Below are positions 2,344-2,640 of a stretch of DNA of 4,069 nt, one piece after another. Each line of letters begins with the position of its first letter. The first letter of the stretch is position 1. The position numbers were made by a program, and so were the translations under genes. Source of the stretch: a virus (lineage: Duplodnaviria; Heunggongvirae; Uroviricota; Caudoviricetes); the IMG/VR virus record IMGVR_UViG_2563366958_000009; one strand, written 5' to 3'. The notes beneath the pieces are model-generated. The model did not search any database. It saw only the letters and a program-made list of their open reading frames with translations, and was not told the origin of the DNA.

Positions 2344-2640
2344 ATGGATATCACGCCGATACTTCATGCAATTTGTGCTGTGGCGGTACAGGGGCTGGTT
2401 GGGTGCATTACCGGTGACTGGGCTTATGGTGCAGCCATTGCCTGTACGTTTTTTGTTGCCCGCGAATATACCCAGGCAGAATATCGCTGGATTAAGCGTT
2501 TTGGTGATGGTCACCGACATAAGATGCCGTGGTGGGGCGGTTTTGATCCGCACGCGTGGGATGTGGCAAGCCTGATGGATTTTGTGGTGCCGGTGGTGGC
2601 CTGTGCGGGATTGTATGGCTGTATGCTGATTTTTAGCTGA
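2344..2640 (+). CDS. Hypothetical small Cys-rich integral membrane protein (98 aa), probably three transmembrane segments
   Basis: ATG at 2344 preceded by AAGGGGAG at 2333-2340, 9 nt after the upstream stop, so it is likely co-transcribed with stf and the 92-aa ORF. Hydrophobic stretches ITPILHAICAVAVQGLVGCITG, WAYGAAIACTFFVA and VASLMDFVVPVVACAGLYGCMLIF flank a charged loop (REYTQAEYRWIKRFGDGHRHKMPWWGG). Stop TGA at 2638-2640. Confidence 0.7.
   Translation: MDITPILHAICAVAVQGLVGCITGDWAYGAAIACTFFVAREYTQAEYRWIKRFGDGHRHKMPWWGGFDPHAWDVASLMDFVVPVVACAGLYGCMLIFS

Follow-up and report, generated by a model that had tools for sequence, protein, structure and literature searches.

A 98-residue membrane protein encoded behind the tail-fibre genes of Escherichia coli lambdoid prophages

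HK97 gp15, T4 Imm and P22 SieA are small phage-encoded membrane proteins, and HK97 gp15 is also encoded among tail genes. The lysogenic-conversion genes gtrABC of P22, oac of Sf6, Z/fun of P2 and the sopE moron provide a second point of comparison. The subject of this work is a protein of 98 residues encoded at positions 2344 to 2640 of the + strand of a 4069-base stretch of phage DNA (IMG/VR record IMGVR_UViG_2563366958_000009; hereafter the window), which belongs to the family PHROG 1443. Like the proteins of the first group, it is a small membrane protein, and by analogy with them it might intervene where an incoming genome crosses the inner membrane; in contrast to them, PHROG 1443 is far more widely distributed and is partly chromosomal. 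Members of the family occupy the same slots as the conversion genes (between tailspike and integrase in P22-like phages and between the fibre-assembly gene and FI in a P2-like phage), and two copies in strain LF82 are transcribed from uninduced prophages inside macrophages. On the other hand, the protein shows no homology to the products of gtrABC, oac, Z/fun or sopE, is a single protein of 98 residues and is not expressed in lysogeny broth (LB); moreover, unlike the lysogenic-conversion morons, the lambdoid copy appears to be fused to the late operon and to leave no room for a promoter of its own.

Judging from the comparisons presented below, the 98-residue gene appears not to be part of the tail fibre but an accessory gene at the far end of the fibre or tailspike module of temperate phages. 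We tentatively read its product as an accessory inner-membrane protein that would serve the lysogen by acting on a widely conserved membrane component, with exclusion of phage genomes at the inner membrane as the likeliest phenotype; we regard this as possible rather than probable.

The gene, its protein and its family

The open reading frame (ORF) begins with an ATG at 2344 and ends with a TGA stop at 2638-2640, and a Shine-Dalgarno-like GGGGAG (2335..2340, + strand), evident on direct reading of the sequence, stands 3 nucleotides (nt) before the ATG. Because the window contains 38 ORFs of at least 30 residues, including overlapping chance ORFs of 155 and 164 residues, length is not evidence of a gene here. 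Conservation, in turn, is informative. The frame is the only one open in all 10 sequences checked (the window and nine homologues from E. coli, Aeromonas, Comamonas, Chelativorans and the Halomonas phage phiHAP-1), the ratio of nonsynonymous to synonymous substitution rates (dN/dS) is 0.18-0.26 against eight alleles, and the product matches a known phage protein family. ORF 2344-2640 (+ strand, stop codon included) is therefore a real gene for a 98-residue membrane protein. Its GC content (0.53) is similar to that of its neighbours, and at least 1000 contigs encode the identical protein.

When the 38,880 PHROG families were scanned, the protein gave a full-length match to phrog_1443 (E 4e-44), with residues 1-91 aligned to profile positions 1-91 of 97, which places it in that family, and a second match to the fragment family phrog_34165; the function of both families is unknown. 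An Aeromonas homologue also matches phrog_1443, whose members occur in lambdoid, P22-like and Aeromonas phages. A word-indexed search returned 88 relatives and an exhaustive profile search at least 463 clusters at 50% identity; the 150 best profile matches listed are all stand-alone proteins of approximately 70-146 residues. An identity of 40-55% is kept from E. coli to Comamonas, Desulfovibrio and the sphingomonads, and 2045 of 5426 complete E. coli genomes (approximately 38%) carry the family, with a median of 2 copies and up to 8. Beyond PHROG, the searches were unproductive. Pfam returned only sub-threshold noise (PhoR, E 0.19) for the protein and 90 diverse homologues, NCBIfam gave no match for the protein or diverse homologues, PADLOC gave none for the protein or five diverse homologues, and a profile search of PDB sequences found nothing below E 1. 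Foldseek against viral models gave no match at E 0.001 or better, and the sole informative match was a 42-residue fragment from phage anhysbys. We found no paper on the PHROG identifier, the protein accessions or the UniProt name Ybl63, and database labels for family members read 'hypothetical' or, in phage 21, 'putative membrane protein'. The protein is thus a member of a catalogued yet never-studied family, one of the class of small accessory prophage membrane proteins.

AlphaFold2, run with 24 homologues, predicts three helices at residues 4-23, 26-53 and 74-97 with a predicted local distance difference test score (pLDDT) of 92.7, and hydropathy shows a hydrophobic hairpin at residues 4-39 and a third hydrophobic segment at 76-98; both lines of evidence support the three-helix membrane protein proposed in an earlier, sequence-only reading of the window. 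Helix 1 (residues 4-23, 2353..2412, + strand) carries His8 near its predicted cytoplasmic end and is predicted to pack, through the turn Gly24-Asp25-Trp26, as a tight hairpin with helix 2, whose hydrophobic part spans residues 26-39 (2419..2460, + strand). A polar loop follows at residues 40-73 (2461..2562, + strand), conserved in the alignments of 24 and of 90 sequences, and helix 3 (residues 74-97, 2563..2634, + strand) contains the conserved Asp79 and Pro83. In the 90 sequences, Lys plus Arg residues number 6.3 in the N-terminal tail and the 40-75 loop versus 0.5 in the first turn and the C-terminal tail. By the positive-inside rule, which is the only basis for this orientation, the N-terminus and the conserved loop are predicted to be cytoplasmic and the C-terminus periplasmic, and His8, Arg40/Glu41 and Asp79 would then lie at the cytoplasmic ends of the three helices. 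In size, in its three helices and in a cytoplasmic N-terminus, the predicted protein resembles the E1-type immunity proteins of pore-forming colicins and the DgkA-type mini membrane enzymes (approximately 100-120 residues). In one homologue (P0118), an N-terminal extension resembles a lipoprotein signal peptide, at odds with the predicted N-in topology. Three others (P0107, P0172 and P0208) carry an insert of approximately 45 residues in the conserved loop; since some members tolerate such an insert, the loop is likely exposed to solvent.

The pattern of the polar loop is R40 E41.. Q44 A45 E46 Y47 R48 W49 I50 ... R58 ... P62 W63 W64 G G F D ... W72. Across the 90 diverse homologues, Glu41, Trp72 and Pro83 are invariant, and His8 (89), Arg40 (89), Glu46 (88), Ala45 (87), Gln44 (86), Arg58 (83), Arg48 (79, plus 7 Lys) and Asp79 (79, plus 7 Asn) are nearly so. 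The sequence-only reading had counted seven cysteines, several of them within transmembrane helices, and had drawn attention to a basic, His/Trp-rich loop (RFGDGHRHKMPWWGGFDPHAW) and to possible metal binding. The loop is indeed present at residues 52-72, and the cysteines do lie in predicted hydrophobic helices, all of them; their number is five (Cys11, Cys21, Cys34, Cys87 and Cys93), alongside four histidines. In the homologues, the commonest residues at these five positions are Ile, Leu, Ala, Val and Leu: Cys is kept in 9 of 90 at position 34 and in 18 of 90 at position 87, and it is not among the four commonest residues at positions 11, 21 and 93. Similarly, His57, His59 and His70 are most often replaced by Lys, Ala and Arg. 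The richness in Cys and His is therefore peculiar to the window's allele, and the metal-binding idea loses its basis. The functional core appears instead to be the polar cluster of His8, Arg40-Glu41, Gln44, Glu46, Arg48, Arg58, Trp72, Asp79 and Pro83, and not the cysteines or the loop histidines.

The fibre cassette and other genomic contexts

The window matches E. coli chromosomes at 99-100%. A complete lambdoid prophage is integrated there next to ompW and the trp operon, and the window is its right end. Its gene order is an stf-type fibre gene, the 92-residue gene, the 98-residue ORF, a convergent YkgJ-like gene, a VapA/VapB-like gene and the end of an IS1 element. The side tail fibre gene (1..2059, + strand; PF08400, E 4e-63; phrog_1419; annotated in strain CE10), which starts 5 nt before the window, encodes a fibre whose N-terminus is conserved and whose C-terminal receptor-binding part is hypervariable. 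The next gene encodes a small fibre-associated protein of 92 residues (2056..2334, + strand; phrog_1361, E 2.5e-39); its start overlaps the Stf stop, and its own stop is 9 nt from the 98-residue gene. The tail-fibre context assigned by the sequence-only reading is thus sound, and its description of a small prophage-encoded inner-membrane protein beside tail genes agrees with the helix prediction and the synteny.

In 86 Escherichia loci, the 98-residue gene always comes after an Stf with a phrog_1419-class C-terminus and the 92-residue gene, in one of three layouts: with a gap of 9-15 nt, with a gap of approximately 720 nt, or with a gap of approximately 1092 nt and an extra fibre gene. Relative to the window's copies, identity across these loci ranges from 38 to 99% for the fibre C-terminus and from 33 to 99% for the 92-residue gene, and from 72 to 100% for the 98-residue gene, whose identity has Spearman coefficients of 0.26 with that of the fibre and 0.12 with that of the 92-residue gene. 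In phage ev243, the fibre and the 92-residue gene are 99% identical to those of the window, and the 98-residue gene is an allele of only 77% identity; the window's exact allele, in turn, has the same YkgJ-like and Vap-like genes behind it in every case, including one in which fibre identity is down to 69%. Alignments to other alleles end after codon 87 (nt 261 of the gene), which places a mosaic joint there, and the variable last 11 codons (AGLYGCMLIFS; 2605..2637, + strand) travel with the cargo according to the alignments and the allele linkage. The allele follows the downstream cargo and not the fibre, which argues against a 98-residue gene paired with any particular fibre. From these comparisons, E. 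coli lambdoid prophages appear to have a hypervariable fibre cassette of which the 98-residue gene is the last member and the constant right flank. The obligate co-occurrence and co-variation with the fibre that would mark a tail-fibre component or chaperone were not found for the 98-residue protein. A receptor-masking protein matched to the fibre was also considered and rejected, because variation among the fibres is not accompanied by variation of the allele, and because the cytoplasmic location predicted for the conserved loop argues against masking of an outer-membrane receptor.

Virulent phages provide an independent view of this relationship. Phage records with the pair of fibre and 92-residue gene number 173-225, the 92-residue gene being found behind this fibre class in 173, and virulent phages of the T1-like, T5-like, rV5-like, Dhillonvirus and Seuratvirus groups are among them. 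In five virulent coliphages with the pair, drawn from these same groups, a hidden Markov model of the family, run with filters off, detected no member within 4-5 kb. Unannotated fragments of the family were found in the virulent phages HC6 (residues 41-86; locus L162, 4001-4138), KFSST3 (residues 1-50) and anhysbys (residues 1-35). Because virulent phages that carry this fibre have no family member or only fragments, the fibre can do without the 98-residue gene, and the gene appears to decay once outside the temperate phages of E. coli. The HC6, KFSST3 and anhysbys fragments lie at the edges of fibre modules and look like scars of cassette transfer from temperate phages.

Some further observations concern the fibre genes themselves. 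In the T5-like phage IrisVonRoten, the 92-residue gene is located between the proximal fibre gene and the gene of the distal T-shaped fibre, a position that suggests an adaptor or assembly role in the fibre for its product. The label 'lateral tail fiber chaperone' was considered for this gene and rejected, as it belongs to the next gene in the BASEL phages. The unannotated 'Campylobacter phage' records C13, C15, C2 and A116 and the 'Listeria phage' record LM 4-14-1 match fibre genes of T5-like and rV5-like coliphages, and these records are probably mislabelled or contaminated. The C-terminal 426 residues of Stf (window 779-2056, + strand) resemble the RcGTA head spike fibre Rcc01080 (PDB 6TB9, E 4.8e-6), and the same class of domain is encoded 5' of 98-residue-gene homologues in Chelativorans, Comamonas and Pantoea.

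Downstream of the 98-residue gene, a terminator scan and reading of the sequence identified a GC-rich hairpin (2647..2666, - strand), 7 nt past the stop codon. Because its T-run is on the minus strand, the hairpin is attributed to the convergent YkgJ-like gene as its terminator; on the + strand it has no U-tract, and it may also halt + strand transcripts. The YkgJ-like gene encodes a CxxCxxCC cysteine cluster and is convergent to the fibre operon (2759-3091, - strand; PF03692, E 6e-12). The VapA/VapB-like gene (3277-3729, + strand; PF05526, E 5e-34), of the virulence-associated family of Rhodococcus equi, is AT-rich cargo at the end of the E. coli prophage (GC 0.39; GC at third codon positions 0.27) and is linked in every case to the window's exact allele of the 98-residue gene. 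The window closes with the end of an IS1 element (3871-4069). As CE10 and many other genomes match the window only to position 3870, this insertion is specific to a few strains.

Family loci were sought with the 24-sequence alignment, the 90-sequence alignment being too diverse, and because ORF calling is noisy in GC-rich loci, neighbour statistics outside the enterics are indicative only. In the P22-like phages Gally and vB_EcoP-611R6, a family gene is located between tailspike and integrase; in 611R6 it adjoins an OafA-like O-acetylase gene and a 38-codon remnant of a fibre gene, and in Gally the interval from the tailspike to the family gene contains a strong terminator of nine pairs, an AT-rich spacer of 190 nt and a good ribosome-binding site. 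The P22-like phage Kapi1, which modifies the O-antigen through an unknown gene, was considered as a link and dropped, since it has no family copy. In the P2-like Halomonas phage phiHAP-1, the family gene stands between the tail-fibre assembly gene, with which it shares 4 nt, and the sheath gene FI; in P2, the slot between the fibre-assembly gene and FI holds Z/fun. Family genes also stand behind genes for fibres, spikes or tail proteins in Comamonas and Pantoea and in prophages of Leclercia, Desulfovibrio, Sphingobium and Chelativorans, with a gap of 1 nt after the tailspike gene in Desulfovibrio and an overlap with the fibre gene in Chelativorans.

In sphingomonads and other alphaproteobacteria, copies occur in ordinary chromosomal settings, near PBP1A, ThiC and cyclopropane fatty-acid synthase, with no operon consistent across loci. 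Four homologues (L056, L061, L062 and L069) are found in a recN-ligA neighbourhood, where each comes directly after a ligA of like orientation at a distance of -27 to 216 nt; three of these come from sphingomonad or other alphaproteobacterial genomes, and L062 comes from a Burkholderiales metagenome-assembled genome. No phage genes were detected near the four ligA loci. Homologues found consistently in housekeeping operons of known function had been named beforehand as the finding that would tell against a phage accessory protein: some alphaproteobacterial copies are indeed chromosomal (e.g., after ligA), but no consistent operon of known function emerged.

Transcription from resident prophages

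Published RNA-seq values for strain LF82, given as log2(fpkm+5) with fpkm denoting fragments per kilobase per million reads, cover three family copies, in the prophages Gally, Perceval and Tritos (PMC9928086, S1 Table). The Gally copy, which stands at 3.75/4.53 in LB, climbs approximately 20-fold in macrophages, to 8.38/8.72 at 6 h, and reaches 6.0-7.0 in the B1 and B6 samples, which apparently represent Dulbecco's modified Eagle medium; the terminase, portal and injection genes of Gally stay at 2.5-4 in macrophages, where phage production is blocked (PMC9928086). The Perceval copy increases from 3.2/3.8 to 5.9/5.6 in macrophages, approximately 5-fold, along with its stf and 92-residue genes (PMC9928086). 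In Perceval and Tritos, the stf, 92-residue and extra fibre genes are up 8- to 40-fold in macrophages, and the J, tape measure and capsid genes remain at background (PMC9928086). Since the genes of the fibre cassette rise while J, the tape measure and the capsid genes are silent, the cassette seems to be transcribed independently of the late operon. Likewise, the rises of the Gally and Perceval copies without the structural genes imply that uninduced prophages can transcribe a family gene in some conditions and contexts. Promoter scans, the Gally scan included, gave counts no higher than those in shuffled sequence, and in three layouts other than that of the window promoter-like counts equalled those in shuffled sequence.

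Possible functions and their significance

Loss from virulent relatives, location in accessory slots, expression from uninduced prophages and high copy number in lysogens together argue for an accessory role in the lysogen. We propose the following sequence of events. The 98-residue protein would be made in the lysogen under some conditions; its conserved, cytoplasm-facing site would bind or act on a widely conserved component of the inner membrane; and the benefit would be protection at the membrane, for example by blocking genome entry by incoming phages. Superinfection exclusion is plausible by analogy with HK97 gp15, T4 Imm and P22 SieA.

Several observations weigh against this reading. 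The gene in the window stands 9 nt behind late fibre genes and has no sigma-70-like site upstream on the + strand, and the short gap, the missing promoter-like site and the neighbour-like GC content argue for co-transcription with the late genes in lambdoid prophages, so that the 98-residue gene in the window may be mainly a late gene. Aeromonas phages, both the P22-like 4_4512 and the probably virulent jumbo phages (e.g., ACP1), have intact copies amid their structural genes. A few homologues have N-terminal extensions resembling signal peptides, which bears on the predicted topology. Exclusion proteins tend to be narrowly distributed, and the identity of 40-55% maintained over a broad range, together with the chromosomal copies, is easier to understand for a general biochemical activity than for a block aimed at phages. 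The family shows no similarity to a described exclusion family (PHROG gives the two families of unknown function and PADLOC none), and no exclusion or other phenotype is on record for any member. In LF82, finally, none of the three copies rises above background in LB, and that of Tritos is silent in every condition (PMC9928086).

It has to be considered, then, whether the protein is a late helper of the lytic cycle, made with the fibres and acting in fibre or virion assembly, in lysis timing or in progeny release. The 9-nt gap to the upstream late gene, the good ribosome-binding site and the lack of a promoter-like site fit such a helper, as do the 4-nt overlap in phiHAP-1, the 1-nt gap in Desulfovibrio, the overlap in Chelativorans and the position within the structural runs of phages 4_4512 and ACP1; indeed, four different phage architectures have the family gene directly behind a gene for a fibre or spike. 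However, virulent coliphages with the same fibre and 92-residue gene have no copy or only fragments, the allele does not co-vary with the fibre, a strong terminator separates the Gally tailspike from the family gene, transcription occurs while structural genes are silent and no phage is produced, and chromosomal copies lack phage genes nearby. A role as a holin finds no footing in the topology: the prediction is N-in and C-out with a C-tail of approximately 3 residues, the lysis genes of these phages are elsewhere, and a holin family was matched by only 1 of 90 members, weakly (Phage_holin_8, E 0.0036). Taken together, a late helper seems rather unlikely.

A minimal membrane enzyme or ligand-binding module, whose target at the cytoplasmic face would be a phosphate-bearing lipid or a lipid-linked glycan and whose action would alter the cell surface, is likewise doubtful, and evidence is divided in a different way. 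The invariant or near-invariant charged residues His8, Arg40, Glu41, Glu46, Arg48, Arg58 and Asp79, together with a Gly-rich G-x-G-K/R-R, are reminiscent of catalytic or head-group-binding sites, and the loop that holds many of them is solvent-exposed, to judge from the approximately 45-residue insert that some members tolerate. The module is conserved over several classes of Proteobacteria, with chromosomal copies near the envelope genes for PBP1A, cyclopropane fatty-acid synthase and a SIS-CBS isomerase; it occupies the seroconversion slot of P22-like phages, and in 611R6 the OafA-like acetylase gene adjoins it. Against an enzyme stand the small size, 98 residues being very few, and the failure of the searches made to find similarity in sequence or fold to any enzyme. 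Furthermore, sphingomonads are not known to have a classical O-antigen of lipopolysaccharide, so the target cannot be specific to the O-antigen, which also counts against this explanation. If it were true, the module would be a new kind of lysogenic-conversion gene sharing its slot with gtrABC and oac.

A broader proposal joins parts of these readings. The family would be a minimal membrane module of approximately 95 residues whose cytoplasm-facing site (H, R-E, Q-A-E, R, R, W, D, P) binds or chemically modifies a universal lipid-linked envelope precursor or a phospholipid, and temperate phages of at least three architectures (lambdoid, P22-like and P2-like) would carry it behind their receptor-binding genes to alter the surface or block entry. 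We consider this improbable as a whole; if true, the module would found a new class of factors for lysogenic conversion or exclusion, and its cellular relatives would be those of the alphaproteobacteria.

A membrane-depolarising abortive-infection effector, which the sequence-only reading had offered beside superinfection exclusion, is very hard to reconcile with the data. The protein is small, very hydrophobic and carried by prophages, as such toxins might be, but genomes hold up to 8 copies, alphaproteobacteria keep stable single chromosomal copies, PADLOC gives no match and there is no conserved partner gene; moreover, a family gene is strongly transcribed in LF82 in macrophages, in which the strain survives well (PMC9928086). 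Least probable of all is a Cys/His metal-binding membrane protein: the window's allele has its five Cys and four His, and His8 with Glu41, Glu46 and Asp79 could in principle bind a cation, but the Cys and loop His positions are held mostly by other residues in the 90 homologues.

Returning to an accessory protein of the lysogen, the findings matter for E. coli in several ways. Approximately two in five complete E. coli genomes carry a gene of this family, often in several copies. The cassette within which lambdoid phages exchange receptor-binding fibres has a fixed right-hand boundary, marked by the 98-residue gene, and a family gene is switched on in uninduced prophages of the adherent-invasive E. 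coli LF82 in macrophages. Once a phenotype is established, be it exclusion of phages, an altered envelope or tolerance of stress, thousands of prophage genes would gain an annotation, and the retention of the family beside host-recognition genes in such different phages would be explained as well.

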